DNA of 36,487 nucleotides from an uncultured Candidatus Saccharibacteria bacterium (GTDB taxonomy: Bacteria; Patescibacteriota; Saccharimonadia; Saccharimonadales; CAYTTW01), in contig CAYTTW010000001.1 of the NCBI GenBank assembly GCA_964441005.1, positions 1 to 36,487 of the forward strand. The letters are read 5' to 3'. Below are positions 13,426 through 28,362 of the stretch, piece after piece. The notes under the pieces are model-generated. The model saw only the letters and a program-made list of their open reading frames with translations, did no database searches and had not been told where the DNA came from. The stretch's first letter is position 1. Each line of letters starts with the position of its first letter. The position numbers and the translations under genes were made by a program.

Positions 13426-14061
13426 ATGGCACCGGCTAGGAGACATTATGAAGTGGGAGGTGGATGGAAGGGGCTGGACCTAAGTGGTCAGAATAGGCCA
13501 CACGGTAGTGAAAGTAATACACGTGGCCTGGCGAAAGCTTTGGGTCTGGGAACGGCTGGCGTTATGGGACTCGTGGGGGCTGGCGAGTTTATTGTGGGGT
13601 ACCATACGGTGGCCCTTGGCTCGGAGTTATTTGCCATGGGGGCATTGAGCTTGCCGTTTGAACGTGTCAGTCGCAATAAATGGGCAGTTGCCTTAGCGAC
13701 TGGCAGTTTTGCCGTGGGGTCTTGGCTCGGCATCGTCAAGCCGGTCATGAATCTGCATCACGAGAGCCCAAAAACAGAGCAGGTGACTACCCCAACCACT
13801 ACGACAACGCCCAAAACAACCGAGGCGACGGTGTTATTTTTGCCAGACGTGGTGAACCAGCCGCCGTTATTTCCAACTCCCTGTCACGACGTACCGCCTC
13901 ATACGGTTCAGCCTGGCGAAAGCATTTCCTCAATTCTCGCTGATAAAGTTCACGGCGAGGGCTACACGCCGGCCCAGCTAGCAGCTATTTTTAAAGCCGA
14001 TTCATCACTCAAAATTGACGCTATCAAACAAGACCAAGTCATCGATTTTAATTGCCCGTAA
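13426..14061 (+). CDS. Membrane protein with Thr-rich linker and C-terminal LysM-like module
   Basis: AAGGAG lies 6 nt upstream of the ATG. Gly/Ala-rich hydrophobic segments (aa ~38-105) are followed by a TTPTTTTTPKTTE linker. The C-terminus (HTVQPGESISSILADKV...IKQDQVIDF) resembles a LysM repeat. Confidence 0.7.
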   Translation: MAPARRHYEVGGGWKGLDLSGQNRPHGSESNTRGLAKALGLGTAGVMGLVGAGEFIVGYHTVALGSELFAMGALSLPFERVSRNKWAVALATGSFAVGSWLGIVKPVMNLHHESPKTEQVTTPTTTTTPKTTEATVLFLPDVVNQPPLFPTPCHDVPPHTVQPGESISSILADKVHGEGYTPAQLAAIFKADSSLKIDAIKQDQVIDFNCP

Positions 14062-14062
14062 G

Positions 14063-16081
14063 CTAGTCTTTGTTGCCAATCACGCAATTAGGATCGAGAG
14101 GCATAGCGCGGAGAAAATTAGTCGCCACCTCGGTTGGGGTGCCGGCCCCGAAATGACCAGGCATGGGGGTGTTTCGATCGGGAAAACCTTCCCAAACCGA
14201 CACCACGCCAAGACAGTTGACGACGGTAAAGCGGGCATCAGCGTTATTTTCGGTCGTTCCGGTTTTAGCGGCAAAGCCGTTGGGGTCAACTTCCTCGTCC
14301 AAATGAAAGGTGCGGCCAGTGCCATCATCATGAACTACCGCCTTCATAGCTTCAGCCACCTGCACTGTAATGTTGTGGGGCACAACTTGGTCGCCGGTGG
14401 TAAAAACGTGGGGGATATTGCTGGCGTCGAGTGTAACGTGGTCAACCGTGTAGCTGGGTGTCGTTTGGCCGTGGTTGAGGATAAAGCTGTTATAAGCCGT
14501 CGCCAGACCGCGGGTTGAACTCGGCAAGGTCCCGAGTACGCTGGAGAATGGTACATAGGATGTGTCAACATCGAGCCCCAGTTGCTTGGCAATTTCAAAC
14601 GGGGCGCTGACACCGTAGCGCTGGGCGACCTGAACGGCTACGATGTTGGACGATTTGGCTACAAATTCTTTGAGACTGCAGCTGTCGCCGGCACATTCCT
14701 TGCCCTTCACAGGATAATCTTCACCGTTATTAACTTTGGGAATCACAATGGTCTCCGGTTCGGGGTAGCGCGTATCGAGCGTCTCGCCATGCATTAAGGC
14801 TACGGCCAGGAAGAACGGCTTATCACTGGAACCGACCTGACGCAGTGCGTCGGCAAGGTTGTATTCCGAATTGCCACGACCACCAATTACGGCTTGAACA
14901 GCCCCGCTGGGGTCGACAAAGGTTAGAGCTAGTTCCGGATCACCGCTGTGATAGCCAATAGCGTCAACGGCTGCCACGGCTCGCTGCTGAATGTCACCGA
15001 CTAAGGTTGATACTACCCGGGCGCCAATAAAATCTTTGGCCAGGTCAATTTTCTGAAGCTTCTTGGGGTTTTGCTCGGCTAGTTTTTGATTAATAAGAGC
15101 CTCGGCCTCTTTTTTGGCATCGGCCACAAAGTACTGGGCCCTGAGCCCGGCGGCGGTTACGACGTACATGCCGGCGACTTTACGCGTAGCAATCGGGTTG
15201 GGACGTACATACTCGGTGAGGGGGTGCAGACGATGATCAAGCCATGGAGTATAGAGGTTGGCATGTTTGGGATCGCACTTGATAAGATCACGGAGAACTT
15301 CGCTTTGAGCGCCAGCCAAGGTTTTCATCTCTTTTGAGCTGGCGTAATCATCCATCCGGGAGGGGGCCCGAATTAAGCCGGCTAAGACCGCCGCCTGAGG
15401 AATAGTGAGTTTATTAGGCGTAGTACCAAAGTATTTACGGCTGGCCATGACGATGCCGCGAGCGTTACGGCCATAGTCAATGCGATCCATAAAGTCACGC
15501 TCAATTTTGACCTTTTTCTCGGCCAACGTGCCGGGCATATCTTGCTCCATTCGCCGGGCCACCTGAATTTCGTGAGCTTTTTCTTTTAATGACAAGTTTT
15601 CTCGTGGCATACCTTCAAAACGCCAGCTGGCATCGTCCATTTCGATGGTGGAGGCCCCTTGCCATGTTGGTTTTGGCTTTAAGCCCAATTTCATGGCTAC
15701 CCACCCAACAAAATCGTGCTTGGCGGCACGGAACAAAGCCTTAGTATCGGCCGCGTCATCACGCTCGACGTAACGAACATCCTCACGGCAAATCAGGGCC
15801 ATGGACATAGTATCGGCTATGGGTTGATCGCCAAGTGGTTCGTACTCGGCTTCCCCAGCATATGCCAAGGCATTAGCTGGAGTGCAGTTGGGAATGTTGG
15901 CTGGGCATATGAGGTTAATAAGCCCACCGGCTGGTGTGGTTTTAGGCATCTCGGCAGCTGGTAAAGGGTCGAGGGCCCCATTTGGTGAAGGCACCCGGTT
16001 TTCCACCACATAATTGTGGTAACCCAGTCCCAGCCCAGCGCCGGCCGCCAATGTCAAAGCTGCAAATGCTTTTAGCGCCAT
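14063..16081 (-). CDS. Divergent class-A penicillin-binding protein (GT51 glycosyltransferase + transpeptidase)
   Basis: N-terminal signal/anchor. GT51-like motifs: REDVRYVERDD, GASTIEMD, KEKAHEIQVARRME, KYFGTTPNKLTIPQAAVLAGLIRAPS. Transpeptidase motifs: SSDK (SxxK), SSN (SxN), KTGTT. The SD overlaps the stop of the upstream gene. Confidence 0.85.
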   Translation of the reverse strand: MALKAFAALTLAAGAGLGLGYHNYVVENRVPSPNGALDPLPAAEMPKTTPAGGLINLICPANIPNCTPANALAYAGEAEYEPLGDQPIADTMSMALICREDVRYVERDDAADTKALFRAAKHDFVGWVAMKLGLKPKPTWQGASTIEMDDASWRFEGMPRENLSLKEKAHEIQVARRMEQDMPGTLAEKKVKIERDFMDRIDYGRNARGIVMASRKYFGTTPNKLTIPQAAVLAGLIRAPSRMDDYASSKEMKTLAGAQSEVLRDLIKCDPKHANLYTPWLDHRLHPLTEYVRPNPIATRKVAGMYVVTAAGLRAQYFVADAKKEAEALINQKLAEQNPKKLQKIDLAKDFIGARVVSTLVGDIQQRAVAAVDAIGYHSGDPELALTFVDPSGAVQAVIGGRGNSEYNLADALRQVGSSDKPFFLAVALMHGETLDTRYPEPETIVIPKVNNGEDYPVKGKECAGDSCSLKEFVAKSSNIVAVQVAQRYGVSAPFEIAKQLGLDVDTSYVPFSSVLGTLPSSTRGLATAYNSFILNHGQTTPSYTVDHVTLDASNIPHVFTTGDQVVPHNITVQVAEAMKAVVHDDGTGRTFHLDEEVDPNGFAAKTGTTENNADARFTVVNCLGVVSVWEGFPDRNTPMPGHFGAGTPTEVATNFLRAMPLDPNCVIGNKD

Positions 16082-16093
16082 ATAGTCGTGTCC

Positions 16094-17218
16094 TTAGGCC
16101 GCAACGCGTCTGAGTAAGGGATTATTGGATTCCATCTGGCCAGTTGCCGGATTGAAGCCGTTGGGAACACGCTCAGCACCCATTGTCTTGATCCAGCCAA
16201 AGTCAATCGCTGTGGTGTTATTGGCTGCAAACGTCGTGGAATCCAGGCAGTACTTTTCGTCAAAGGTCAGGTGCGGCATATAGCTGTATAGTTGGGCTTG
16301 ATCGCTATAGGCTTGGTTAATGTCCACACCGGGGACAAACGGGTGGCTATCGTCAATCAGAACATCGACATTTTGCGGGGTAATGCCATGAGCCGAGGAG
16401 GCGACCGCACGAGCGTGGGCCCGAACCAATATTGACATGGCTTCATGGGCGGAGACAGGTGGTTTCCCAGGTTCACTGAAGGCGGGGATCAAGACCTGTT
16501 CAACCGGGCAGGCCGTGTCATTGGCAATAATGCTGACGGTCCTCAAAATGCTGCGCGCTAAGTTATTATTGTTGTCGGCACCAAGCAGGGGCAAGCCATT
16601 AAACCACCCTGTTTTCAGTGATGTATCAATACAGCCGCCAAATTGCGGATCGTCCTCTTTGACAGCACACTGTAAGTCAGTCGGACTCGTACCCGACGAC
16701 ACATCTGGCAATGGAGTGTAAAACTTCAGGCTAGAGATATCGATACCTTGGCCATTATCACCGCTGACAGTCCATACTCCTTTGCCGTTATTCTGACCTT
16801 CTGCATGGGTGAGGTTTGGCAAGACAATCCGCGTGACTAAATCCGCATCAATCCGCGCCTTTGAAGTGTCAACGACGCGGTGTCGACTTTGCTTGACGTC
16901 GTGGAAGCGGACCCACTTACCAACTTCTTCATCGGTCTCGAGCGAAAATGTATTACTAATTTGACTCTTACGTGCCGCGAAGACCAGCTTGCAGTCCACT
17001 GAGCCTAAAATGGCATGCCCCAAACCAGCAGCGTGATTGGCTTCACCGCGGAAGTCGCAGACACGTTCTCGCACTGGGTCCATGACTTTGCCTTCGATTT
17101 TTGGCAGAGAATTAACTAAGGTAGCACCTGCCGCCAAGAACGCGACGAGACCACTGCCCAGCAAGATCTTGCCTTTGCTGCGTATGCGGGTTTTGACTTC
17201 AGGGTAACGGTCAACCAT
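16094..17218 (-). CDS. Bitopic membrane protein with Cys-containing ectodomain (374 aa), distant paralogue of the 404-aa neighbour
   Basis: Short N-terminal tail, one TM segment (ILLGSGLVAFLAAGATLV), and six Cys in the ectodomain. GAGG overlaps the upstream stop, with an 8-nt gap to the previous gene. The family is not recognised. Confidence 0.75.
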   Translation of the reverse strand: MVDRYPEVKTRIRSKGKILLGSGLVAFLAAGATLVNSLPKIEGKVMDPVRERVCDFRGEANHAAGLGHAILGSVDCKLVFAARKSQISNTFSLETDEEVGKWVRFHDVKQSRHRVVDTSKARIDADLVTRIVLPNLTHAEGQNNGKGVWTVSGDNGQGIDISSLKFYTPLPDVSSGTSPTDLQCAVKEDDPQFGGCIDTSLKTGWFNGLPLLGADNNNNLARSILRTVSIIANDTACPVEQVLIPAFSEPGKPPVSAHEAMSILVRAHARAVASSAHGITPQNVDVLIDDSHPFVPGVDINQAYSDQAQLYSYMPHLTFDEKYCLDSTTFAANNTTAIDFGWIKTMGAERVPNGFNPATGQMESNNPLLRRVAA

Positions 17219-17226
17219 AGAGACCT

Positions 17227-18441
17227 CTAGAAAAGTGCAATCTGTTTATTTTTAAATTCATTGGGCAAAGCCCCTCGCCGTTGCTGATCGCGGGCCTCAT
17301 CGATGAGGGTGCCCCCTTCACCATCTGGAAAGACGCCGAGTTTAACCGATTCTCCCCCGAGCATTTTGACCTGATCTATATAGCTCATAAGCGAATGGGT
17401 ATCGATAAACGGATGATTATTATTGTAGCCATCAATACCAGCCAGCGAGCACCATTGGTCAAGCTTGGTACCGGTGGTTTTGCTGTCAAAAGGCGACACT
17501 ACTTGTTTGTCGTGGGCATGAGCTTCAGCCAGTCGTTGGCTAACAGGCGTCGTATTGGACGGATTGAGACGGAGCTCACCCATGTTGAAATTGACGACTG
17601 ATGGGGGGATACCATAGTTGGCCCAGAGATATTGACGAACGGCACTCCGCAAGCTCCAGCTAAAATCGATACCTTGGGGCTTAAAGATGTATTCCTCCAA
17701 ACAGTATTTGTCGGTCAGGAAGAGACGCAGCGACTTCATCGACTCATCAATAACGTCACTATCACTACTTAATAAACCACGCGAATTCGCATCAATATCA
17801 TAGCGGCCCACATAATTCTTGCCAGTGGGATCAACGCCTTGGCATACAAAAATGCGTGCGCCAGCACTATCTTTACTATCACAGACCTGGCCCAGTAGGG
17901 GCTCCATAACAAGATCGCCAATAGTAATGCCATTATCACTACCATCTTCACCGCGCTGGGTCACTCTTAAGGATTCCTCTTGCCAGTCGTAGCTCAATTT
18001 AGCCATATCCGGGAAGTAGAGTCCGACTTTTGTGTCGGCCACAGTTACAGCGTAGGGGTTGTTACCAATTGTGTCTTTCTCGCCCCGCCCCAGTGCATAC
18101 ATGGGAACCATACCTATATAGCCACTGGGTGAACGAACATCGAGTCCTTTAAAAGCTGAGCCTGCCTTGGCCTTATTGACTGGATCATTCAAATGAATAT
18201 CGGCATTCATAATACTGACCCCAACCGCACAAGCCACTGCGGCCAACCAAGCCACCGCACCTTTAGCACGGTGGTTACCATTATTAATAATAATGTTATG
18301 GCGGTACGGTGGTGGCTGGTCATAGTACTGATCAGCGTATTGATTAGCATAGTACGGTGCTGGCGCCTCCCATTGCTCAGGAGGTAGCTGCCCACGATCA
18401 ATATCCTGGTAGTCGGTGTTCTCGTACGCTGGTCCGCGCAT
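17227..18441 (-). CDS. Bitopic membrane protein with Tyr/Gln/Pro-rich cytoplasmic tail and Cys-containing ectodomain (404 aa)
   Basis: The SD AAGAGG lies 5 nt upstream of the ATG. The tail is YENTDYQDIDRGQLPPEQWEAPAPYYANQYADQYYDQPPPY, followed by a TM segment (AVAWLAAVACAVGVSIM). The four ectodomain Cys are colinear with four of the six in the 374-aa protein. Confidence 0.75.
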   Translation of the reverse strand: MRGPAYENTDYQDIDRGQLPPEQWEAPAPYYANQYADQYYDQPPPYRHNIIINNGNHRAKGAVAWLAAVACAVGVSIMNADIHLNDPVNKAKAGSAFKGLDVRSPSGYIGMVPMYALGRGEKDTIGNNPYAVTVADTKVGLYFPDMAKLSYDWQEESLRVTQRGEDGSDNGITIGDLVMEPLLGQVCDSKDSAGARIFVCQGVDPTGKNYVGRYDIDANSRGLLSSDSDVIDESMKSLRLFLTDKYCLEEYIFKPQGIDFSWSLRSAVRQYLWANYGIPPSVVNFNMGELRLNPSNTTPVSQRLAEAHAHDKQVVSPFDSKTTGTKLDQWCSLAGIDGYNNNHPFIDTHSLMSYIDQVKMLGGESVKLGVFPDGEGGTLIDEARDQQRRGALPNEFKNKQIALF

Positions 18442-18612
18442 TGATGCCTCTTTCTAACTCATGCACCTATCATTATACGACTGGCTTCGTCTAGTTCGTA
18501 GTGTCAGTCCGTACTCAGACTGGCTACTCTTACGATAGTATATTGTTTGTGAATTTACAACTTTAGGGTCTCAAATTGCTTTTTTAGTGCGTATCGTTTT
18601 TTGTAACAGGGG

Positions 18613-18672
18613 CAGTACTTTGACAAATGAGGCGGACTGTACTTTAATAAGACTGATTTGGTCAGTACTTTG
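18613..18672 (+). repeat. Three direct copies of a (C)(A/T)GTACTTT(G/A) element overlying the promoter of the 261-aa/884-aa operon
   Basis: CAGTACTTTG at 18613-18622, CTGTACTTTA at 18637-18646, CAGTACTTTG at 18663-18672. Spacing is 24 and 26 bp. Confidence 0.6.
18620..18648 (+). promoter_or_regulatory. Near-consensus sigma70 promoter for the 261-aa/884-aa operon
   Basis: TTGACA (18620-18625), 17-nt spacer, TTTAAT (18643-18648). The ATG at 18698 is preceded by AAGGG. Confidence 0.55.
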
Positions 18673-18697
18673 GAGTGTCTAACGAATAAGGGTAATA

Positions 18698-19483
18698 ATG
18701 GTAAAAGTCAGCCAGCCAATTCCAGCGCCACAAGGCCGTCGGGCTCCCGTGCCGTACCGCGGCGGGCCACCGCGTGGTTTGCCGCCACCCCAAGAACTTG
18801 GGCGGTCATGGCGCGTACTCACAAAAGAGAGTCTTATCCAGCGACATCCACGATTGGCCGTTTTGCTTGGAGGGCTTGGTCTCTACGGAGTCTTGCTCAT
18901 TGGCCACACTGCCGATAAAGTGCCACTACTCAACAAAGCTCTCGATGTGCCCGCAGCGGTTGGTCACACTCTGCGTCACGATGGACGAGTCTGTGTTGAT
19001 TCAGTTAAACCGGCGCCCGCTTTTCCAGACACTACCCTCGCCAAAACCACGGCGACCACCGAAGACGATTCCAAGCTACTCTTTCACTTTTTCAGCTACT
19101 GTTTGAGCAAAAAGGGCCTGCAGCACGACGATGCTGGTAAAATTAGGGCTGAGGTAACGATGAAATTTGACGATAAACGAGCCGTTGATCTCTGGAAGGC
19201 CAATCTAACCATTGGGCAGAGCCTGTACTTGCCGGCCAGTCCGTATGCCTTTGTCGCCAACCTCTCGAAGGAAGAATGTGCCGAAGATTATGATCATATT
19301 CAGGCCAAAATTCATAGTAGCGCGCATGCTCTCGCCAATTCTCAAGTGACGGCTGCCGATATATTGGCCACTAAAGACGTTCCCTTAACGAGTATGGAGC
19401 ACACCAGCGATACTTCGGCCGCTGTCGTGCGTACCGCCATTTCCTGTGCGCTGGCTGGCACCGCTAATCAAACCACGCCGTAG
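18698..19483 (+). CDS. Bitopic membrane protein with Pro/Arg/Gly-rich cytoplasmic tail and Cys-containing ectodomain (261 aa)
   Basis: The tail is PIPAPQGRRAPVPYRGGPPRGLPPPQ, followed by a TM segment (LAVLLGGLGLYGVLLIG). The ectodomain has four Cys. An 11-nt gap precedes the next gene. The family is not recognised. Confidence 0.7.
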   Translation: MVKVSQPIPAPQGRRAPVPYRGGPPRGLPPPQELGRSWRVLTKESLIQRHPRLAVLLGGLGLYGVLLIGHTADKVPLLNKALDVPAAVGHTLRHDGRVCVDSVKPAPAFPDTTLAKTTATTEDDSKLLFHFFSYCLSKKGLQHDDAGKIRAEVTMKFDDKRAVDLWKANLTIGQSLYLPASPYAFVANLSKEECAEDYDHIQAKIHSSAHALANSQVTAADILATKDVPLTSMEHTSDTSAAVVRTAISCALAGTANQTTP

Positions 19484-19494
19484 AGGTAATAAAT

Positions 19495-22149
19495 ATGGGC
19501 TTATCTTCACCACACCTACCTGAAGCCAACACTTTTTTACGCTTTAATAGTACGAACTTATTGCCAATACTCGATCGCTTAGAGGCGGGTGTCGTTGAAG
19601 ATGATAGTCGGCTTCGGCTGGTAGTAAAGGGTTTGCTGGCAGCCGGCATTGTGGCACCACCACTTATTCTAGAGGCTATGCCAGCCAGTGCTATGACACC
19701 AGCCGTCTACCAAGCCAGCCATGAAGTTCAGCCGAGTTTTTCGCCAGTACCGAATGAAACACCAGAGGTGGTAGCTCCTCAGCCGGCATTTCGTCCGCCA
19801 GCCGCGCCTCCAGCGCTGTTATCGGTGTCTGCTGCACATACTGAAGCCAAGACGTTTCAGCCAGTTGAGCCTATCGCTGGACCAATTCGGGTTCCGGCAC
19901 CGATAACCGTCGCGCCAACGGTTACGGAGGCTATATCCATCCCAAAAGTTGCTGATTTGCCCACCAGTATTGACTTGAGTCCACCACTTGTGCCACTTGA
20001 AACAACACTTCCCGCGGTTCTTGAGTCACCTGAAGCGATCGCCGCGTCCGATATGCGGTATACAACGCCTCTCAGAGCGCAATTAGTGAGCCCACCGCCA
20101 GTAGCTGATACGGTGTCTCTGGAGCGCGCTAAGCCTATTGTAAAGGTTCAATCCACCTTTGTGCCCGTACACCCGCCTACCAGCCCAACTGCAAGCCAAG
20201 AGGGAACCAATACTCCGGCTCAACCAAGGCTCGCTGTGCCGCCTGCGGCAATCACTGAGCTGCCGCCAAAGCCAAAGGCTGATCAGCCGGTCTTAGCGGG
20301 GGCCGACCATCTTCCCGCACCACCAAAATCGACTGCCAAAACCTTCAAGCCTGTTTTGCCGCGTTTGACTGCGCCACCAGCTGCTTCGGCTTCGGTTGTA
20401 CCACCGTCCGCCGAAGCTCCAGCGGCTTCGCCTCCGCAAAAAGAGGCGACAACTGCCGAAAAGAAGGCAGCTGCTGTTAAAACCGCGCTTGATCTTGCCT
20501 GGTCTAGTGGTAATCATGGCAAGACGCCGAAAGACGAATACAAAGCAGCGGTTCAGCAGTTTAACGGCAGTGATGATGAAGATGTTTATACAGACTGTGG
20601 AGTCTATGATGCCACGGTTTACCGCATGTCAGGTGCTGATCCCCAGTTTTTCCTTCGTGGTACGGCCAATCAGACCACGTATTTAAATACGACCGGTGCG
20701 GTCTGGACTCATATTGGACCAGCTGAGCACACCGCCGATCTGCAGCCAGGCGACGACATTATTTACGATAAAACTACGAGTCCGAAAAACCCTATTGGAC
20801 ACACCTTTATTTTTACCGGATCTTTGCCAAATGGTGATAATGCTGCCGCAGCGTCGTGGCATGGGCATGCGCCAGAAACATTTCAAGTGACTGACAAATA
20901 TTTGCAATCCGAGCCTTTCCAGATCTATCGTTTAACAGACGCGCCAATACCGGCTCCAACTCCTCCCGAAGCCTCCACACCACCAGTAACCCCTGCACCG
21001 TCCAACAAAACACCAAGCTTTAAGGCGGTCGTGGTACCACCCCCAACACCGAGCTCACCTGAGCAGCCCGCTCCCGAGGTGCCGACTACCAATACTGCTC
21101 CAGTGCCTCCTTCCAATCAGTTTAAAGCGGTAACGCCTCCGCCGAATCCGCAGCCACCAGCCCCAGAGACGGCACCGACCACACCAGCGCCAACTGCTCC
21201 TTCACCAGCGCCAGCCCCCAAGCCGCCGGAAGCAGCCCCAGCTCCACCATCAACTGAAACCCAGCATACCGATCTGGAACACCAATTTGCCCCGAACGAT
21301 GAAATCAAAAACAAACTCCAGGACCAAAAAGAGGTGATTATGCCTAATGTGAGTGTCTATCAGCAAGCGGCCGATGCCGTGGGCGTTCGTTGGGAAGCGC
21401 TGGCGGCTCTCGATTACCGGGAGGCAGGAAATGACATGAATCGCTCGGCCATTGCCGGTGAGGACTTTGGAACCGTTAACCCCGATACCCACGAAGTAAT
21501 GCCCACCAATAAGCTCGATAGCTTAAAAGCCCAGGCCAACATATTGGTCGAAAAGGCTCGTCAGCTGAGTATCACGCTCACCAAAGATAGCACCGTCGAA
21601 GACTACGCTCGCGCCTTCCTGCGCTATAACCGGGGCAATATGTACGATGCCGCCAATACTAACTACACTGATTCACCGTATGTCATGAATGGCATTGATG
21701 CCGACCACACCTGGATGCACTGGCCCAACAGTAGTGCTGAGCCGAAGTCGACTCGCGGTAAGGTCAACAAACAATTGGGCGCCGTGCCGCTGTATATGTA
21801 TCTGCGTCAGACCGTCACCCCGCCGGCTCCGGAGGCTCACTCAACTCCTGTAGCCAGTGCGGGCGCAGACCAGCCAGATACTGCTAAACAGTCAAAAGAT
21901 AAAGGCGACGATAAAACGAAAGAGGCGTCCAAGCCCAAAGCCGGCACTCAAAAAGATTTTTCACCAGTCAACGTTGGCTCAACGGGTGTCGATTCGCCAA
22001 CCGACCCAGCCGTGAAGACGCCAACAGTAAACCCACCCAAAAAGGGCGACTTTACACCTGTGAAACCCAAAGATATCAAAGCGGATAGTTCAACTCAATC
22101 GGACACCGGAGCTAGTTCGGTCGATTTGTTGGCAACAAGCCAGAATTAG
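19495..22149 (+). CDS. Membrane-anchored, proline-rich, two-module cell-wall hydrolase candidate (NlpC/P60-like + lysozyme/transglycosylase-like), 884 aa
   Basis: The SD AGAGGT lies 7 nt upstream. TM/anchor at aa ~42-62. A Pro/Ala/Val-rich linker spans ~65-325. Module 1 (aa ~325-480) has a Cys in TDCGVYDATVY (TGT 20596-20598), LQPGDDIIY, and a His in IGHTFIFTG (CAC 20800-20802), which fits the NlpC/P60 pattern. A second Pro-rich linker follows. Module 2 (aa ~612-770) has ALDYREAGND and AFLRYNRGNMY, reminiscent of SLT/lysozyme-like folds. The C-terminus is a Lys/Pro/Thr-rich tail. Confidence 0.85.
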   Translation: MGLSSPHLPEANTFLRFNSTNLLPILDRLEAGVVEDDSRLRLVVKGLLAAGIVAPPLILEAMPASAMTPAVYQASHEVQPSFSPVPNETPEVVAPQPAFRPPAAPPALLSVSAAHTEAKTFQPVEPIAGPIRVPAPITVAPTVTEAISIPKVADLPTSIDLSPPLVPLETTLPAVLESPEAIAASDMRYTTPLRAQLVSPPPVADTVSLERAKPIVKVQSTFVPVHPPTSPTASQEGTNTPAQPRLAVPPAAITELPPKPKADQPVLAGADHLPAPPKSTAKTFKPVLPRLTAPPAASASVVPPSAEAPAASPPQKEATTAEKKAAAVKTALDLAWSSGNHGKTPKDEYKAAVQQFNGSDDEDVYTDCGVYDATVYRMSGADPQFFLRGTANQTTYLNTTGAVWTHIGPAEHTADLQPGDDIIYDKTTSPKNPIGHTFIFTGSLPNGDNAAAASWHGHAPETFQVTDKYLQSEPFQIYRLTDAPIPAPTPPEASTPPVTPAPSNKTPSFKAVVVPPPTPSSPEQPAPEVPTTNTAPVPPSNQFKAVTPPPNPQPPAPETAPTTPAPTAPSPAPAPKPPEAAPAPPSTETQHTDLEHQFAPNDEIKNKLQDQKEVIMPNVSVYQQAADAVGVRWEALAALDYREAGNDMNRSAIAGEDFGTVNPDTHEVMPTNKLDSLKAQANILVEKARQLSITLTKDSTVEDYARAFLRYNRGNMYDAANTNYTDSPYVMNGIDADHTWMHWPNSSAEPKSTRGKVNKQLGAVPLYMYLRQTVTPPAPEAHSTPVASAGADQPDTAKQSKDKGDDKTKEASKPKAGTQKDFSPVNVGSTGVDSPTDPAVKTPTVNPPKKGDFTPVKPKDIKADSSTQSDTGASSVDLLATSQN

Positions 22150-23018
22150 GGCTTGGTGGCAGGAGCGGCTGGTGCCTGTTGAGTACAATCAACAACCACC
22201 GTAAGATGGGCATCGCCAGCAGTGTAAGGGTGGTCTTTGTATGGTCCTTCATGGTTTGCCGCTAATTTGTCGACCGTTTTTAAGAAGGTTGAGTTAGTAG
22301 CCAGATCGTCGGGGGTACTAATGCCCGGGGCTAGGTTAGCCATACTGGTAGCTCCTTGGGTGGTGCCACCAGGACGCATGGCAACTGAACCAAAGCGCTT
22401 GCAGGTGTAGGTAAAACCATCAGCCGAATTGAAGACTAACGACGGTTTGATATCAGTAAGATTACCTTCAAACACGCTGGTGCCACTTTGGGCTGGTGCG
22501 GCAGCCGCTGGGCCCGGTACGGTGCGAACCACGGTCTTCGTTTTTGACTGGGGGAAGAAACTAGCGCCCACAAATGCCCCGGCGGCTAGCAGCGCGCCAA
22601 TTTTCAGCCATGTTTTACCATAAATTCGTAATTCAGTTTCATAGCCCTTGCGTGCTGTGCGCTGGCCCTCGTGATGCGAAAAGTCCGACTCATACGTACC
22701 TTTTGGAACTTCGTTGTAGTGAAGGTACTTAATATAGTCGGCGGCGTTGCGAAATGGGTGTCCGGTCGCCAACCCGGTCTCATGGCTACGGGTTAATAGA
22801 ATATCTTTTGTCGTTCGGCCCCAAAAACCATACGGTACGTCCGCTCGATTCTCGTGTCGGTGCGTTACGTGCCGTTCATCGAATCGGTTTAACCGTTGCT
22901 TCGGTTGTTTGGGCGCTTTTGATTTCGATGCTTTGCCCCAGCGGCGACCGCTTTCCTGGCCCCGAGCTTCAATTGCGGAACTAGGAAAAGCTGTTCCCTG
23001 ACTTTCACCAAAACTCAT
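22146..23018 (-). CDS. Bitopic membrane protein with ~145-aa basic/His-rich cytoplasmic domain and small two-Cys ectodomain (290 aa)
   Basis: AAGGAG lies 6 nt upstream of the ATG, and the gene has its own promoter (next feature). TM segment WLKIGALLAAGAFVGASFF. Its stop overlaps the stop of the convergent 884-aa gene. The family is not recognised. Confidence 0.75.
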   Translation of the reverse strand: MSFGESQGTAFPSSAIEARGQESGRRWGKASKSKAPKQPKQRLNRFDERHVTHRHENRADVPYGFWGRTTKDILLTRSHETGLATGHPFRNAADYIKYLHYNEVPKGTYESDFSHHEGQRTARKGYETELRIYGKTWLKIGALLAAGAFVGASFFPQSKTKTVVRTVPGPAAAAPAQSGTSVFEGNLTDIKPSLVFNSADGFTYTCKRFGSVAMRPGGTTQGATSMANLAPGISTPDDLATNSTFLKTVDKLAANHEGPYKDHPYTAGDAHLTVVVDCTQQAPAAPATKP

Positions 23019-23057
23019 GATTCGCTCCTTCTGTATCCAGACGTCATTCGACGTCGC

Positions 23058-23086
23058 ATTATTTACCTTAGTCGCTTTTTTGTCAA
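23058..23086 (-). promoter_or_regulatory. Internal promoter for the 290-aa gene (minus strand)
   Basis: On the minus strand: TTGACA (23086-23081), 17-nt spacer, AATAAT (23063-23058). The dyad GACGTC-ATTC-GACGTC (23040-23055) lies at about +1. Confidence 0.55.
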
Positions 23087-23099
23087 TCCGATTGCATTT

Positions 23100-24032
23100 T
23101 TATCCAGCCTGACGTCGCCACGGGAATGGCCAACGACTGCCGGGTGGTGCTTCAATGGAGTTGCTCTCAGGGTGTTTGTTGACAATGACCGGTACCTCAC
23201 CTGCAAAGTGATTGGTCGGTTCACTCGTTCTTTCAGGGAGGGGTTCGATAGCTGGGGGATCGGCCATTAAAATGCGCGGTAAAACCGTAGGGGTTGAAGC
23301 CTCGATGTCTGGTGATGCATTAGCTGTGTCTTGATTGTCGTCGATAACTGGTTCGATGGCTGCGCGGCGACCAATTGTCACCTGCACATCGCTGATGGTA
23401 ACTCCATCAATTGGTGCCAAGTCAGCCGGCAGCTCGAGGGTAAGTTCTTGATTATGATTAAAGGTGACTCGGCCAATGACGTAATCGCTGGCTTGCGGAC
23501 CCGAAGGACGAGTAAATAGCCTAATTTCGCGCTGGGCACTAACCCTCATGAGTAAAAAAGTACCGACTGACGCGGCCGCGTCAGTCGTCATTAAATCCAG
23601 CAATGAATCGTCGGTGTCCCAACTAGTCAATCCGCGGACGTCAAAGATACCGATGGTGGGCTGGGTAGCGAGCACAGTTTCAATCTCGGCCACAGACGTG
23701 GATTCGTCCACGTTGGCTGGGATAACTTGCACCTCCAGCTTTTGCGGCGGTAGATCACTGGGACGCACAATAAAAAAAGCATCACTAATTGGTTGACTCT
23801 CGCCATTAACCAAAAAACTTGGTGAAATGACGGTAACGACGCCACTGATACCTTCGGTTTCAAGTGGGGGGAAAGTAAAACTTTCTAGCTCAGCGAGGTT
23901 GACACTTAAGGTCTGCCCGGGACTTAATACTGCCGGTTTGGAATCGAGCCCAGCACCAGCTACATCGGCAGTTGCTTCAATAAGTGGTGTATCAAAATCG
24001 TGCTCGGCGGGATTGTGGTTTCGGTCGGTCAT
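23100..24032 (-). CDS. Acidic soluble hypothetical protein (310 aa), translationally coupled to the upstream 665-aa gene
   Basis: Its ATG overlaps the upstream TGA (ATGA at 24029-24032), with GGAG 6 nt upstream. No TM segment. The sequence style looks beta-rich. No recognisable motif. Confidence 0.7.
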   Translation of the reverse strand: MTDRNHNPAEHDFDTPLIEATADVAGAGLDSKPAVLSPGQTLSVNLAELESFTFPPLETEGISGVVTVISPSFLVNGESQPISDAFFIVRPSDLPPQKLEVQVIPANVDESTSVAEIETVLATQPTIGIFDVRGLTSWDTDDSLLDLMTTDAAASVGTFLLMRVSAQREIRLFTRPSGPQASDYVIGRVTFNHNQELTLELPADLAPIDGVTISDVQVTIGRRAAIEPVIDDNQDTANASPDIEASTPTVLPRILMADPPAIEPLPERTSEPTNHFAGEVPVIVNKHPESNSIEAPPGSRWPFPWRRQAG

Positions 24033-26026
24033 GAGCTTCTCCGGCGGCGCCCCACTGGCGAGACTATTAAAGCGTCGGCTCCTTGAGAAGGATCGGCCAT
24101 AACAATGGCTTCACCGGTGTGCGGATGAACACTGACCATAGCGGCCAGGCGAGCCTTCCGTCCGCCACTGGCGCGGTCGGTCGCAGTACGCTCAAGCGTC
24201 GGCAAGTAAGGCACCAGTTCCTGACTAGCCTGAGGGCGTAGAACGCGTGCTTGGCGACGCCCGCGACGTCCGGGAGCCGGCATTGCCATCTCCATGGGTG
24301 AGGGATAATTGCCTGTATGTAGGGTCGGGTCTGGTAATTCCTCGTCTTGGCTTTTCTCAAAGGCGGTGACGACCCCGTGACCAAGGACAGCAGCTACCTC
24401 ATACCCTCGTGGGTGAGTGGCGCTTCGTTCTACCAAGGCGTAGGTATTGGCTCGCTTGGGGCGCACAATGGTGTTAACAATATTTTCGATGGTGTGGACC
24501 TCGTTGGGATGGTCGGCACTGTAGTGAATAAAGTCACCAAAAATACCTAGACTGTCGTCCACTCGTATGACCACAAACTGCTGCCAACGATTTGAACCTA
24601 GCTCGACAGTAAATTTGCCCACGACGCCCGGCAGTTTAGGGTAGGCATCGGCATCATAGCCAGTCTGTTGTTCGTCGAGCAGTTCGGAGAGTGATGAGAA
24701 CGGTGTGTTAAGGGTGTCAATGGTGGGGGGGATTGGCGGCATGAATTCGTGTTGCTCAAAAACTTTTTGACTGCCAAAGGGGTAAAGCACCGCCTTCATG
24801 TCCGGATCGGTGACATGAGCATGGAACGGTCGATCAACGTAAAATGAACCCGTGACCCCCATTTGGAGGGCGTCACGGTCGAGGTTAATGCCGTATTGAT
24901 CGTAGGCATCGTGCAAAATCTTGGCAGCATTATCGTGGCGTTGCCCCCAAGCAGGATCGTGAACAGCGTCCATGGAACCCATGACCATAACCAGCTGATA
25001 CGGGTTTTGATCGGTGGCTACACGGTTTTCTAGTAACGTTAACTTAGCGCGCGACCGGCAGTAGTAATCTACTATCTCTTCCTGTAATTCTTCCGATAGG
25101 CCAGGTCGCCGGCTCGTTAGTTCATATTGGAGACGTTCGCCAATGTGATGTAAATAGGCGCGCCAGAGATAGCTATCAGAAACGCCAGGAAGCTCTGGGA
25201 GGACTTCCAGAATTTGATACCGCTCGTATTCATCACCACTTAGCTGGCTATTGCGGCCACGTTCTAAAACGCCCCGTAGAATTTCTTCATAGTGCGGGCG
25301 CAACTCGGGATCAGTCATAATTTGATACTTTTGTTCCAGTGCGCGCACAATTTGGTAAGGGGTGACACCGTCACGCTGCATAATCCAGCGTTCTTCCTTA
25401 AGTAGGTCTGCCGGATAGCTCGAGGCAAGGCGCAAACCCTCAGCCGTTGGGTACGCAATAATTGGCACTTCATTGATAACATCGTTATACGAAAAAACAT
25501 TACAGACACGGTACTCTCCGGTAGTTGGTTCGGGCGATGCCAAGATATAGGTGCCGGGTAAGCCGGGGTCCTTAAACTCTTCTGGACGGCTATGCTGGAG
25601 TTGTTCGCGCCGGTGCCGACGGATAACATCTAGCGCGATGGCCCCCGGTGCCACATCGAGGTTCACGAGCTTATACTCCTGGGTCTCTAAAACATCTTGT
25701 CCCATCTTGGCTTTGGCGCCTTCAAAACGCAGCAAGGCGACAGCTCCCGTCAAACGACCAAAAGCATCATCACTGGTTGGCGGTAGGAAGTTGGCATCTT
25801 TATAGGTGGAACCTTCAGCAGTGGGGTGCCAGCCGGTACTACGAAGCGAGAGTCCGTTGGCGGTGAGCAGAGGTGATGGGTGGGGAAGAGCGGCCACGAC
25901 ATCACTAAGCCAATGTGGTCCGCCAATTGTCAGATGACGCGGCTGACCGTATTCCGGATCGGGACCAGGGGCTGCGGAACTTGCTGGGGCACCTGGTGTC
26001 CATGGGGCAAGAGCTCGTTCAGACAT
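24029..26026 (-). CDS. Large soluble hypothetical protein (665 aa from the SD-supported ATG) with an Arg-rich C-terminal tail
   Basis: The track ORF starts at GTG 26038. The ATG at 26026 has GAGG 6 nt upstream (GTGAGGTGGTCTATG), so I prefer it. By eye there is no TM segment, no Walker A motif and no HExxH. Confidence 0.8.
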   Translation of the reverse strand: MSERALAPWTPGAPASSAAPGPDPEYGQPRHLTIGGPHWLSDVVAALPHPSPLLTANGLSLRSTGWHPTAEGSTYKDANFLPPTSDDAFGRLTGAVALLRFEGAKAKMGQDVLETQEYKLVNLDVAPGAIALDVIRRHRREQLQHSRPEEFKDPGLPGTYILASPEPTTGEYRVCNVFSYNDVINEVPIIAYPTAEGLRLASSYPADLLKEERWIMQRDGVTPYQIVRALEQKYQIMTDPELRPHYEEILRGVLERGRNSQLSGDEYERYQILEVLPELPGVSDSYLWRAYLHHIGERLQYELTSRRPGLSEELQEEIVDYYCRSRAKLTLLENRVATDQNPYQLVMVMGSMDAVHDPAWGQRHDNAAKILHDAYDQYGINLDRDALQMGVTGSFYVDRPFHAHVTDPDMKAVLYPFGSQKVFEQHEFMPPIPPTIDTLNTPFSSLSELLDEQQTGYDADAYPKLPGVVGKFTVELGSNRWQQFVVIRVDDSLGIFGDFIHYSADHPNEVHTIENIVNTIVRPKRANTYALVERSATHPRGYEVAAVLGHGVVTAFEKSQDEELPDPTLHTGNYPSPMEMAMPAPGRRGRRQARVLRPQASQELVPYLPTLERTATDRASGGRKARLAAMVSVHPHTGEAIVMADPSQGADALIVSPVGRRRRSS

Positions 26027-26104
26027 AGACCACCTCACCTATCAATTACTATGTATCATCAAACCACATTATATGTGAGCGCGCAAGGTCAAGCGGCTTA
26101 GCAA

Positions 26105-26132
26105 TTGACACAGACTATTAGATATGTATTAA
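26105..26132 (+). promoter_or_regulatory. Promoter for the 427-aa/274-aa (and possibly uvrC) transcription unit
   Basis: TTGACA (26105-26110), 16-nt spacer, TATTAA (26127-26132). It sits in the 156-bp divergent region shared with the minus-strand operon, which has a consensus TATAAT at 26073-26068 on the minus strand. Confidence 0.45.
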
Positions 26133-26194
26133 TTAGTATAACCAATCGTCGTAGACTATTGCGGGAGATATAGGGTGATAAGAAAGGACTACAT

Positions 26195-27478
26195 ATGCTG
26201 ATTAAACCTGGGCAAGGTGCATCGGAAGGGCAATCGTCGGTTCAGCCAGAGGCCAGAGCTGACCAATCAGTGGAGCGTTTCGGAAGCTTTGGCACGAGTG
26301 ACACCAGTCATCTACCCACCGATTTGCGAGAACAAGCGGTTGCTGGCCCCGATGCCGAAATTGTGGATCTACGAACCAGGAGTGACGAACCAGAAGTGGC
26401 AATCAGTGCTGATGAACAGTCAGCAAGTACACTCCCTGAAACATTTACTCCGGCAGAAGATGTGGCGGCACTACCAGCTGTCGCCGATCAGCCAGAAATA
26501 ACGCCCAGGGCATTACCCCCTCGCCTCGCAGCCCGGCCACGACCAAGCTCTCGTCCAGAGCTGGTTATTCCACCGACCGACGTGGTGACGGCTGTACAAC
26601 GCATGATTGATACCATTTTGATTGAAACCGGTATCGATCCGCATATTCATGAAGTTGAAGTTTTGCGTGAACAAGCGGAATTGCTGGCGCGGGGACGCGA
26701 TACCGAATTAACTAACCGTGCCCCAAACCTTCGTGAGCGCATTCGACCCACCTCAGTTGGTCAAAATCAGCAACGCCTCGAAACGACTCAGGCCTATGCA
26801 GTAATTGACACGCTGTTTGAAAGTCGGGACAAAAGTCAGTTAGCCGCCATAGATAAAGTTATTCAACGCACAGACCTAATGCACAATAGCGATATTAAGA
26901 TGTTACCAACGGTCGACGGGGATGGAAAGTTATATTTGTTGAGTGACGAAGGCGTTGCCAAAGTACGGGCTAGTCGAACAGTTTTACGAGACGCCAGACG
27001 ATTGTCATTTGACGGCCAGGAAGTTCAGCCCGCGGCCACATCCGAAGACATAGAAACAGCTCCCGACAGTATGGTCGAGACGATCATAATTGCTGATCCA
27101 GATAGTAGCGGCACGCTTTTGCAGCTACGCCCATCGCTTGTTAGTGTGGAAGTCGACCAAGTAGTCGTTGGCAATCTCACACGTATTAACGCCGTGGCAC
27201 TAACAGCCATTGGTCTAGCGGCTGTCTTGGTGGCTGATGCCGAGCGCCGGAATGAGCTCATTAAATCATTTAGGAATGACAACCAGACCATTAATGTTGA
27301 TAGGGTAGCAGAGGCTATTGCCAGTTTACTCGATCAACAAGGTCCGGATAGCGTCTTGCAGAGCCATCAACGCACACTCGGCGTGATCTATCCTGATTCT
27401 GGACCTATTGCGCCAAATGCTTTGCCGACCAATGCTGCGGAACTTGAAAGTGGTGATACCGCACCGGAAGCTGAATAA
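26195..27478 (+). CDS. Acidic hypothetical protein (427 aa) with a disordered-looking N-terminal third and one hydrophobic segment near the C-terminus
   Basis: The SD AAAGGA lies 7 nt upstream. The first ~130 aa are rich in E/D/P/A/S. A hydrophobic stretch (INAVALTAIGLAAVLVA) may be a TM segment. No recognisable motif. Confidence 0.75.
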   Translation: MLIKPGQGASEGQSSVQPEARADQSVERFGSFGTSDTSHLPTDLREQAVAGPDAEIVDLRTRSDEPEVAISADEQSASTLPETFTPAEDVAALPAVADQPEITPRALPPRLAARPRPSSRPELVIPPTDVVTAVQRMIDTILIETGIDPHIHEVEVLREQAELLARGRDTELTNRAPNLRERIRPTSVGQNQQRLETTQAYAVIDTLFESRDKSQLAAIDKVIQRTDLMHNSDIKMLPTVDGDGKLYLLSDEGVAKVRASRTVLRDARRLSFDGQEVQPAATSEDIETAPDSMVETIIIADPDSSGTLLQLRPSLVSVEVDQVVVGNLTRINAVALTAIGLAAVLVADAERRNELIKSFRNDNQTINVDRVAEAIASLLDQQGPDSVLQSHQRTLGVIYPDSGPIAPNALPTNAAELESGDTAPEAE

Positions 27479-27537
27479 TTATTTGACAGTTTAATTGCTT
27501 GGTGGTAAAACACATCAAGCATCATAAGGAGGACATT

Positions 27538-28362
27538 ATGGCTCAAGGTGGAGATCGCCCAGGTGGGTTTATGCATGACCCAGTCGAATCAATGGCTCAG
27601 GCACGTTCCAACCCAAATAATCGAGGTGGACTCATTTCTAAAGGACGTGTATTGACCGCCGCCGCGGTAGTTGTGGCGGGTGGATTTATAGCGAAAGGGA
27701 CTATTTTTGATTCTCACCCTGCCCATCGCCCTCATAACATTGCCCTCAGTCCAACGACGACCGCGCCGGCAACAACTTTGGAACTTCCATCATCAACAAC
27801 CTCACAAGCTCCCGAAACCACCACTAGTGCTGCCCCAACCACCTCAACGGTAGAAGTTCCCCGGACAGTGGTTAGCGTCAAGACAGTTGTGGTAACCGAC
27901 CCTAATACCGCCAAGCAACTGAAAGAAGCGCAAGATCAGCTAGCTGCCCAGGATCAGGCGAAGAAGAAAGCTGATCAAGATCAACTGAACGCTGAGAATG
28001 CCCGAAAACAAGCCGAGGCCGACAAGCTAGCCAAGCGCAAGCAACAGTGTGCTGATCTGGCCAAAGTTGCCCTGCCAGAACCACCCAAGGATGATCACCA
28101 GGACTTCGTGTGGGATCTCAGTAATACCGGTGACGGCGTTGATCCCTCTACCAAAGAAGAAGGAGCCGATGGCTATCGCTACGATCCTAATCCACCAAAT
28201 ACCTCAGAGTATTACCAACATAAAAATCCCAAATACGATACTTACGACACTAATTGTTATGATGTCGGTGGGCATAAGTTCATCGTGGTTGACTGGCTAG
28301 CCGATAATCAGCGTAATCCATATATGCCGCCGGCAACTACCACCACAACTGTTGGTAAGTAA
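27538..28362 (+). CDS. Bitopic membrane protein with Thr/Ser-rich stalk, coiled-coil segment and Tyr/Asp/Asn-rich C-terminal module (274 aa)
   Basis: A strong SD, AAGGAGG (27524-27530), lies 7 nt before the ATG at 27538; the track start at 27499 lacks one. TM segment VLTAAAVVVAGGFIA, stalk TTTAPATTLELPSSTTSQAPETTTSAAPTTST, coiled-coil-like KQLKEAQDQLAAQDQAKKKADQDQLNAENARKQAEADKLAKRK. Confidence 0.75.
   Translation: MAQGGDRPGGFMHDPVESMAQARSNPNNRGGLISKGRVLTAAAVVVAGGFIAKGTIFDSHPAHRPHNIALSPTTTAPATTLELPSSTTSQAPETTTSAAPTTSTVEVPRTVVSVKTVVVTDPNTAKQLKEAQDQLAAQDQAKKKADQDQLNAENARKQAEADKLAKRKQQCADLAKVALPEPPKDDHQDFVWDLSNTGDGVDPSTKEEGADGYRYDPNPPNTSEYYQHKNPKYDTYDTNCYDVGGHKFIVVDWLADNQRNPYMPPATTTTTVGK

Follow-up and report, generated by a model that had tools for sequence, protein, structure and literature searches.

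Saccharibacteria live attached to other bacteria and, to our knowledge, the ways in which the wall is breached and remodelled at the contact site are largely unknown. Orphan-rich islands are common in the genomes of candidate phyla. Here we describe a block of eleven genes, B01 to B11 (positions 13426-28362), that lies between trhO and uvrC in a stretch of 36,487 nucleotides, hereafter the window, from an uncultured member of the Saccharibacteria. The described systems to which it can be compared are the wall hydrolases of monoderm conjugation systems, the secretion systems of Patescibacteria, the class A penicillin-binding proteins (PBPs) and the flexible surface islands. Monoderm wall hydrolases of the VirB1 type include TcpG of pCW3, CwlT of ICEBs1, TraG of pIP501 and PrgK of pCF10.

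In monoderms, the two-domain hydrolases of the VirB1 type combine an N-terminal transglycosylase with a C-terminal Cys/His peptidase (PMC12102498). VirB1-like hydrolases are not closely associated with virB4 in most classes of Patescibacteria, and part of the same report describes how, in Ca. Southlakia epibionticum, a type IV secretion system (T4SS) and neighbouring peptidase and lysozyme genes are required for epibiotic growth (PMC12102498). Flexible surface islands are exemplified by the cell-wall island of Haloquadratum (PMC4535781).

The genome of origin belongs to the Saccharimonadales (Saccharibacteria/TM7): UvrC of the window shares 55-74% identity with UvrC of about 28 Saccharimonadales metagenome-assembled genomes. 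On balance, we favour the view that the block is a lineage-specific, replaceable accessory cell-envelope island, inserted in the trhO-uvrC junction of this genome. The main concrete outcomes of the analysis are the insertion at what proves to be a hot spot, the relatedness of B06 to T4SS-type wall hydrolases and the standing of B09 as a genuine ORFan. Below, we describe the junction in relatives, the products of the block and their organization, and then the role that the island might have.

The trhO-uvrC junction in relatives

Loci were fetched from genomes by UvrC and from metagenomes by TrhO, and 142 of them were compared with all proteins of the window by tblastn. The order uvrA-VTT-L25-ABC-trhO-uvrC-pepP-holin-SBP5-FAD oxidase is kept across the group, with trhO (47-70% identical across relatives) normally immediately upstream of uvrC. 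Amongst the 63 loci that have both genes, the gap between them has a median of 330 bp and is no longer than 1.7 kb in 61; in the window it is 15.0 kb. Apart from a 22%-identical PBP-like gene in locus L012, the block proteins found no match in any of the 142 loci. Conservation of the gene order in relatives had been set by the first-pass annotation of this DNA as its own check, and the outcome went against it, adjacency of trhO and uvrC being the rule. That adjacency, taken with the absence of block homologues from relatives, indicates that the block was gained by, or inserted in, one lineage and is not an ancestral module. The apparatus of the pole or septum that had been envisaged is likewise not borne out: the block is absent from every relative examined and therefore cannot be core division or elongation machinery, and it has the character of an accessory insertion instead of conserved pole, septum or divisome machinery.

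The absence of homologues from other Saccharibacteria loci would also be compatible with an assembly chimera, or with a contaminant segment joined into a Saccharibacteria contig. There is some difference in composition: the correlation of relative synonymous codon usage (RSCU) is 0.83 between block and flanks versus 0.94 between the two flanks, and GC content at third codon positions (GC3) is slightly lower in the block. However, the block ends in a short spacer on either side (51 and 32 bp) and parts exactly those two genes that adjoin each other in relatives, two precise joins would be needed, and the tetranucleotide signature (correlation of 0.83-0.88 between block and flanks; 0.89 between flanks), the GC content and the usage of Shine-Dalgarno (SD) motifs match those of the flanks. 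We consider a chimeric origin very improbable. In composition, then, the block stands near its flanks; if it came from elsewhere, it is either well ameliorated or derived from a similar genome.

Two other lineages have envelope-type modules at this position. The L010 junction, with a gap of 8.9 kb, holds three stalked, membrane-associated (bitopic) orphans, and its hydrolase is a protein of 824 residues with a transmembrane (TM) anchor and weak LysM, GH19 and VanY signals. In L012, the divergent PBP-like gene stands beside uvrC with orphans of 964, 193, 265, 443 and 666 residues, several of them strongly acidic. The product of this PBP-like gene (L012 7905-9989) matches GT51 at 1.8e-33, has no detectable transpeptidase domain, contains ten cysteines and is acidic (net charge -40); this may be a PBP that is monofunctional or has degenerated. 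Each of the two modules is unique among the 142 loci, and both resemble the window block in the kinds of parts that they contain. Local alignments with shuffling revealed no detectable mutual similarity between the block and the L010 and L012 modules, the PBP pair excepted; z-scores of 4-6 came from stalks rich in threonine and proline (T/P-rich) and were discounted.

The content of the junction is altogether different in the window, L010, L012 and L017. Other cargo includes ATP-grasp/GNAT genes (L119), a GDSL lipase (L017) and a HAD phosphatase. In two metagenome relatives, L126 (9601-13927) and L094 (11436-14499), trhO is followed by a GT4 glycosyltransferase, GH57 and GH15 enzymes (glycogen/starch-type) and a B_lectin protein, and there is no uvrC there. 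A conserved gene for a HAD/PGP-phosphatase-like protein of 178 residues often lies between trhO and uvrC in L010 (1102-1638), L001 (4372-4908) and L004 (7812-8339), and also in L019, L016, L130, L103, L011 and L026; it accounts for many of the gaps of 0.6-1.6 kb, and the window lacks it. The trhO-uvrC junction is a general hot spot of gene gain, at which envelope modules have been taken up at least three times.

Cargo so different from lineage to lineage is also what would be expected if unrelated lineage-specific genes of various kinds had piled up at a recombination-permissive junction, without a common function and with the peptidoglycan enzymes beside orphans by chance. Since the junction hosts unrelated cargo in other lineages, co-location by itself is weak evidence for a common function. 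The window also has other small orphan insertions, at 3433-3936 (between obg and sbcB) and 8544-9032 (after uvrA): these ORFs, for products of 167 and 162 residues, interrupt the conserved order and have no Pfam match and no tblastn match in any related locus, which indicates further lineage-specific insertions in this genome. Set against a pile-up is the independent occurrence of envelope-type modules at the junction in two other lineages, together with features of the products and operons described below. Overall, we regard such a pile-up as the main rival reading, possible but somewhat unlikely.

Products of the block

Bitopic membrane proteins make up most of the products, and their ectodomains, of the disulphide type, stand on T/P-rich stalks. 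The N-terminal anchors proposed for eight ORFs were confirmed, in B01 (two segments), B02 to B07 and B11, and so was the bitopic topology with paired cysteines (2, 8, 6, 4, 4, 2 and 2 in the ectodomains); B06 stands apart, with Cys368 as its single cysteine. No block protein exceeds two hydrophobic segments. The common architecture of eight of the eleven products (tail, TM segment, stalk and Cys-paired ectodomain) would not be expected of a pile-up of unrelated genes, although the lack of any paralogy or shared domain within the block fits such a pile-up. B03 and B04 were considered as paralogues; they have in common one motif of 26 residues (E=0.009), which is not convincing. Together with the PBP B02 and the Cys-His hydrolase domain of B06, the bitopic Cys-paired products agree with the earlier description of the block as envelope-directed.

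B08, B09 and B10 are acidic (net -27, -21 and -29) and none has an N-terminal TM segment. A motif scan of the block proteins bore out that the large acidic ORFs have no P-loop and no HExxH, and found no LPxTG either. Residues 331-349 of B10, which had escaped mention, form a strongly hydrophobic 19-mer, INAVALTAIGLAAVLVADA, with a mean Kyte-Doolittle value of 1.97; this may be a membrane segment, in which case B10 would be the ninth membrane protein of the block.

B06 begins with a TM anchor (~42-64) and a proline-rich stalk of ~270 residues, followed by a Cys-His peptidase domain (~328-480, with Cys368 and His436), a proline-rich linker of 100 residues, a lysozyme-like domain (~605-775) and a tail rich in lysine, threonine and proline. 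Its globular domains have no Pfam match even at E<=10 and no sequence match in the PDB. In a collection of 5.8 billion proteins, their sole homologue is P0039, in which both domains occur in swapped order and which comes from a 7-kb Logan contig where its neighbours are a VanY protein of 1032 residues and a PEGA protein. A tblastn search of plasmids added a match (34% identity, E 1e-6) between the Cys domain and the C-terminal half of an SLT-domain 'lytic transglycosylase' (WP_337446775.1) on pGnB68, a plasmid of the actinobacterium Glutamicibacter nicotianae. The gene for the latter sits within a monoderm conjugation cluster, where it adjoins TcpC (PF12642) and is flanked by genes for a VirB4-like AAA_10 ATPase and an FtsK-like coupling protein; a PEGA protein is encoded immediately downstream, as it is in the P0039 contig. 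A two-domain hydrolase with a PEGA protein is a conserved pair, seen at L062 4035-5983 (an uncultured contig, SRR3944645) and L143 8326-10607 (the T4SS cluster of pGnB68), the hydrolases being related at E 3.5e-20 and the PEGA proteins at E ~1e-10. The Cys-His domain common to these two hydrolases has no Pfam model.

Three motifs are invariant across B06, P0039 and the plasmid hydrolase: TDCG (with Cys368), LxPGD and GH (with His436). When a profile of the three sequences was compared with the PDB, the top match was the NlpC/P60 protein 8er5 (E=0.15), through a PGD...H...G motif; neither this nor a second small profile gave a significant PDB match. Residues 328-480 of B06 have no significant match to the NlpC/P60 or CHAP family profiles; the Cys and His keep the order and spacing of these families. 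The NlpC/P60-like module of the first-pass annotation thus lacks a Pfam match above threshold, but the call was right in substance, because the motifs are invariant and the best PDB match of the profile is an NlpC/P60 protein. By its homology to the plasmid hydrolase and these motifs, the Cys-His domain falls in one family with the peptidase domain of two-domain wall hydrolases of the VirB1/TcpG type.

The lysozyme-like module (605-775) is a different matter. An AlphaFold2 (AF2) model of the B06 domains, built on an alignment of three rows, reached a mean predicted local distance difference test (pLDDT) score of 41, with some helices at 62-85. Foldseek placed g-type lysozymes at the top for this low-confidence model (3gxk, E=0.38, prob 0.89), followed by SltB3, a type VI secretion system effector-immunity complex (4kt3) and GH73 enzymes, all with E>0.3 and none significant. 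The top Foldseek matches are in line with the module as first proposed, without Pfam or PDB sequence matches and at E values short of significance; the assignment is weakly supported. The conserved LysM-CHAP protein of the same genome (950-2047) was compared with B06 and B01 and shows no relation to them.

B02 is the product with the clearest family assignment, and the presence of GT51 and transpeptidase domains in the block was upheld by Pfam: Transgly at 9e-22 (77.8 bits; cut-off 27) and Transpeptidase at 4.4e-9 (36.4 bits; cut-off 22.1). Matches to PBP1a and PBP1b in the PDB range from 4e-18 to 1e-13. The transpeptidase motifs are intact, as SSDK418 (aligned to SSFK), SSN477 (aligned to SRN) and KTG606. 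In GT51, motif 1 (EDxxFxxHxG) is reduced to ED, motif 2 reads GASTIEM and motif 3 aligns as KE..E. The nearest homologues among the 5.8 billion proteins are only 27% identical and sit in unrelated gene contexts of a proteobacterial type. Its domains and motifs mark B02 as a true class A PBP, though a very divergent one.

The ten proteins besides B02 were searched against Pfam (also at E<=10, with whole proteins and excised domains), NCBIfam, PHROGs and PADLOC; none has a match to a curated family in these libraries, where only sub-threshold LysM and low-complexity noise was found. The LysM-like module that had been recognised in B01 did not stand: it scores 13.4 bits versus a cut-off of 20.9 (E=0.079) and covers positions 1-24 of a profile of 43. 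B11 has only weak, low-complexity NCBIfam matches, for example to TolA. Across all the searches run, B02, B06 and B01 (through its sub-threshold LysM match) are the only three block proteins with any relatives or candidate domain.

Searches of the whole protein collection (5.8 billion proteins, and 1.84 billion representatives with full HMMER) were run with B02, the B06 domains and B09 as queries. B09 found only itself among the 5.8 billion and, among the representatives, itself and one marginal match of 39 residues; it has no match in the PDB or among plasmids or viruses, and its single-sequence AF2 model has a pLDDT of 32. It is, on the evidence of these searches, a genuine sequence ORFan. 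B03, B04, B08 and B10 have no match among 72,556 plasmids; B03, B04 and B10 have nothing significant in the PDB; and B04 has no close relative in metagenome contigs. All of the block proteins, as well as TrhO, are singletons at 90% identity, which indicates that the lineage has been sampled only once.

Gene organization and control regions

The eleven ORFs are present and tightly packed between trhO and uvrC, at the positions first assigned to them, and Pfam domains support the identity of both flanking genes (Table 1). They are genuine genes, arranged in about five transcription units. Evidence for the genes themselves is that codon positions in all eleven follow the order GC1 > GC3 > GC2, as in the flanking genes, and that every ATG start has an SD-like GGAG/AGG motif 5-10 nt upstream. 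The earlier arrangement into packed units holds, although it was given as four units and five were listed. The convergent ends are, as described, without a spacer: one nucleotide separates B01 from B02 (14061/14063), and B06 and B07 overlap by 4 nt (22146-22149). B09 and B08 also overlap by 4 nt, and the gaps B02/B03, B03/B04 and B05/B06 are of 8-12 nt. The operon B04-B03-B02 opens with B04. Overlapping operons that mix enzymes with orphans (B04-B03-PBP, B05-B06) are a further argument against an accidental pile-up. From the position of the SD motif, the start of B09 is fixed at ATG 26026, where it had been placed before, and that of B11 is moved from TTG 27499 to ATG 27538, which has a strong AAGGAGG; the resulting form of 274 residues is the version stored in the public protein collection.

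Table 1. Features of the block and its flanking genes, with positions in the window.
Feature	Position	Strand	Description
trhO	12502..13374	+	Conserved left flank, outside the island; Pfam UPF0176_N 4e-22, Rhodanese, Rhodanese_C
B01, 211 aa	13426..14061	+	Two hydrophobic segments, T/P-rich stalk, C-terminal Cys153...Cys210 module; sub-threshold LysM-like N-half
B02, 672 aa	14063..16081	-	N-terminal anchor; highly divergent class A PBP by sequence, GT51 + transpeptidase
B03, 374 aa	16094..17218	-	Bitopic membrane protein, 6-Cys ectodomain; orphan in the searches made with it
B04, 404 aa	17227..18441	-	Y/Q/P-rich cytoplasmic tail, TM segment, 4-Cys ectodomain; orphan in the searches made with it
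Divergent control region B04/B05	18442..18697	.	Promoter-like TTGACA-17-TTTAAT for B05; three CAGTACTTTG-type repeats at 25-bp spacing
B05, 261 aa	18698..19483	+	P/R/G-rich cytoplasmic tail, TM segment, 4-Cys ectodomain; no family match
B06, 884 aa	19495..22149	+	TM anchor, P-rich stalk, Cys-His domain, linker, lysozyme-like domain, tail
B07, 290 aa	22146..23018	-	135-aa basic/His-rich cytoplasmic tail, TM segment, 2-Cys ectodomain
B08, 310 aa	23100..24032	-	Acidic (net -27), without TM segment, without Cys; no match in the searches made with it
B09, 665 aa	24029..26026	-	Acidic cytoplasmic protein; sequence ORFan
Divergent control region B09/B10	26027..26194	.	Promoter-like TTGACA-16-TATTAA for B10
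B10, 427 aa	26195..27478	+	Acidic (net -29), one hydrophobic helix 331-349, TM status uncertain; no match in the searches made with it
B11, 274 aa	27538..28362	+	Short tail, TM segment, T/P-rich stalk, coiled-coil-like K/Q/A-rich stretch, 2-Cys C-terminal module
uvrC	28395..29900	+	Conserved right flank, outside the island; Pfam UvrC_RNaseH_dom 2.6e-50, UVR, GIY-YIG

Of the two divergent intergenic regions described earlier, that between B04 and B05 stands unaltered, and the second begins at 26027, not 26039. A generic scan for promoter and terminator consensus sequences was overall not above chance. Perfect TTGACA hexamers with a spacer of 16-17 nt and an A/T-rich -10 element are found in the correct orientation at 18620 (B05), 23086 on the minus strand (B07), 26105 (B10) and 27483 (B11). 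B07 has at 23086-23058 a strong promoter-like site of its own, TTGACA-17-AATAAT, that agrees with the consensus at 11 of 12 positions. These sites are putative promoters of the sigma-70 type, and suggest that there are at least five or six transcription units.

The 10-mer CAGTACTTTG occurs exactly at 18613 and 18663, with a near copy, CTGTACTTTA, at 18638 (the three spanning 18613-18672), and the first copy overlaps the TTGACA -35 hexamer upstream of B05. With up to one mismatch, the 10-mer is found nine times in the window versus 2.0 expected, and six of the nine are inside the block. The repeats may be an operator for a regulator.

The identifiable genes of the left flank encode MltG/YceG, LysM-CHAP, Obg, SbcB, UvrA, a VTT-domain protein, L25, an ABC exporter and TrhO; those on the right encode UvrC, aminopeptidase P, a holin-family protein, an SBP_bac_5 protein and an FAD-linked oxidase. 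The exonuclease I gene (3983-5416; SbcB-type, RNase_T + Exonuc_X-T_C) is kept in this Saccharimonadales group at 51-57% identity. The holin-family protein (31608-31976; 122 residues, Phage_holin_4_2, mycobacterial 4-TMS holin superfamily IV) adjoins pepP and is kept in almost all relatives at 46-78% identity; it is a housekeeping membrane protein and not the product of a prophage gene.

Mobile elements, secretion, phage and defence

As the first-pass annotation had it, there are no marks of a classic mobile island: no integrase or transposase, no tRNA in or beside the block and no flanking direct (att-like) repeats. The block has no Rfam match. Neither AAA_10 nor any other NTPase of Pfam or NCBIfam was matched by the block proteins, so that no VirB4-family ATPase was found, and no P-loop is present in them. 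A coupling protein, a polytopic VirB6-like protein, a relaxase and an integrase were also looked for in the block, and gave no Pfam or NCBIfam match. PHROGs returned no phage family and PADLOC no defence family for the ten proteins besides B02; a tblastn search of 50,697 phages with the B06 domains found nothing, nor did scans of viral contigs with block proteins. On these results, the block is neither a secretion system nor a phage nor a defence island.

It could, alternatively, descend from an integrated conjugative element of the monoderm T4SS type, as its decayed remnant or its cargo, with the hydrolase and some bitopic channel-associated proteins kept and the ATPases, relaxase and integrase lost. 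A wall hydrolase of the VirB1 type is indeed represented, by the Cys-His domain of B06, whose homologue on pGnB68 stands among a VirB4-like ATPase, a coupling protein and TcpC. B03 and B04 are of TcpC/VirB8-like size and bitopic topology, and in most classes of Patescibacteria the VirB1-like hydrolases lack a close association with virB4 (PMC12102498). Nevertheless, the block contains no VirB4, type IV coupling protein, VirB6-like protein, relaxase, integrase, P-loop or att repeat, and gives no Pfam signal for TcpC/VirB8 even at E<=10. In addition, no other block protein matches the 72,556 plasmids (B03, B04, B08, B09 and B10 were queried), and the composition is near that of the host genome. 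An origin of this kind seems to us improbable.

Proposed role of the island

If the block is an accessory envelope island, as we favour, a peptidase and a lysozyme-like glycosidase would be held out on the long proline-rich stalks of B06, across the cell's own wall or past it. With such a reach, the island would remodel peptidoglycan locally and decorate the cell surface, and the PBP might rebuild what the hydrolase opens. The hydrolase may act on the wall of the host bacterium at the contact site. The acidic cytoplasmic proteins B08, B09 and B10 are guessed to be partners or scaffolds for the low-complexity tails of B04, B05 and B07, on which they would dock. The island would be a replaceable ('flexible') surface island, with a content that varies by lineage, and would lie outside the core machinery of growth and division.

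Several points weigh against this reading. The glycogen-type, ATP-grasp/GNAT, GDSL lipase and HAD phosphatase cargo in other lineages means that the junction may be merely a permissive site. Orphan status, in the case of B01, B03-B05, B07, B08, B10 and B11, rests on the family libraries, the 142 loci and the plasmid and phage sets. The lineage was sampled once, even its TrhO being a singleton at 90% identity, and close relatives are not in the comparison. Finally, GT51 motif 1 of B02 is degenerate, and the lysozyme-like (B06) and LysM-like (B01) assignments are below significance.

A stronger version would have the block as a dedicated, self-contained envelope-spanning machine, made of PBP, hydrolase, bitopic adaptors and cytoplasmic scaffolds and placed at the pole, the septum or a host-contact site. 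Its operons combine enzymes with bitopic proteins bearing low-complexity cytoplasmic tails, acidic cytoplasmic and bitopic proteins are grouped in shared units (B09-B08-(B07), B10-B11), and analogous sets of parts occur in L010 and L012. However, absence from every relative examined excludes a place in core division or elongation; neither an energy source nor an NTPase motif is apparent; and the AF2 models are poor (pLDDT 41 for the B06 domains and 32 for B09). We judge a dedicated machine unlikely. A related idea is that the window block and the L010 and L012 modules are equivalent versions of one undescribed envelope-spanning apparatus of Saccharibacteria for opening and resealing peptidoglycan at the host contact, with their similarity erased by fast, host-driven evolution. 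The parts of such an apparatus may be a stalked multi-domain hydrolase, a specialised PBP, bitopic adaptors with disordered tails and acidic cytoplasmic scaffolds; we would give this idea little credence.

As an accessory island, the block would be a compact, lineage-specific surface set in which a wall synthase is joined by a hydrolase on a long stalk, a relative of the enzymes with which conjugation machines open the wall, and it is a plausible candidate for host-specific surface functions. The junction is of interest in its own right, as a hot spot where genes are gained in a reduced genome whose synteny is otherwise strong. It should be noted that the practical value of these findings is limited: they concern one uncultured genome, and ten of the eleven proteins are without a curated family in Pfam and NCBIfam.

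Comparison with known systems

B06 resembles the monoderm VirB1-type hydrolases (TcpG, CwlT, TraG and PrgK) in pairing a glycosidase-type domain with a Cys-His peptidase. It differs from them in its TM anchor, in some 370 residues of proline-rich stalk and linker, and in having no T4SS ATPase or channel genes nearby; compared with the pGnB68 hydrolase, its domain order is reversed and its glycosidase domain is no Pfam SLT. With the T4SS of Patescibacteria (PMC12102498) there is a likeness of lifestyle at the level of the phylum, and wall hydrolases of the T4SS type occur there that are not always linked to virB4. Unlike the T4SS of Ca. Southlakia epibionticum, however, the block is without VirB4, VirB6, VirB3 and VirB2-like genes.

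B02, in turn, has the GT51 and transpeptidase domains, the SxxK, SxN and KTG motifs and the N-terminal anchor of the class A PBPs PBP1a and PBP1b. In contrast to these, GT51 motifs 1 and 2 are altered, identity to the nearest protein is 27%, and the gene is located in an accessory island and not at a conserved locus.

As a whole, the block can be set beside the flexible surface islands, such as that of Haloquadratum (PMC4535781). The described islands differ from strain to strain within one species and carry mostly glycosylation or S-layer genes, whereas the comparison here is at the level of genus or family, orphan genes make up the content and cargo unrelated to the envelope is found at the junction as well. 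The two are alike in that neither has an integrase or att site, and in that both hold a fixed position between conserved genes and bring to it an envelope content specific to the lineage.

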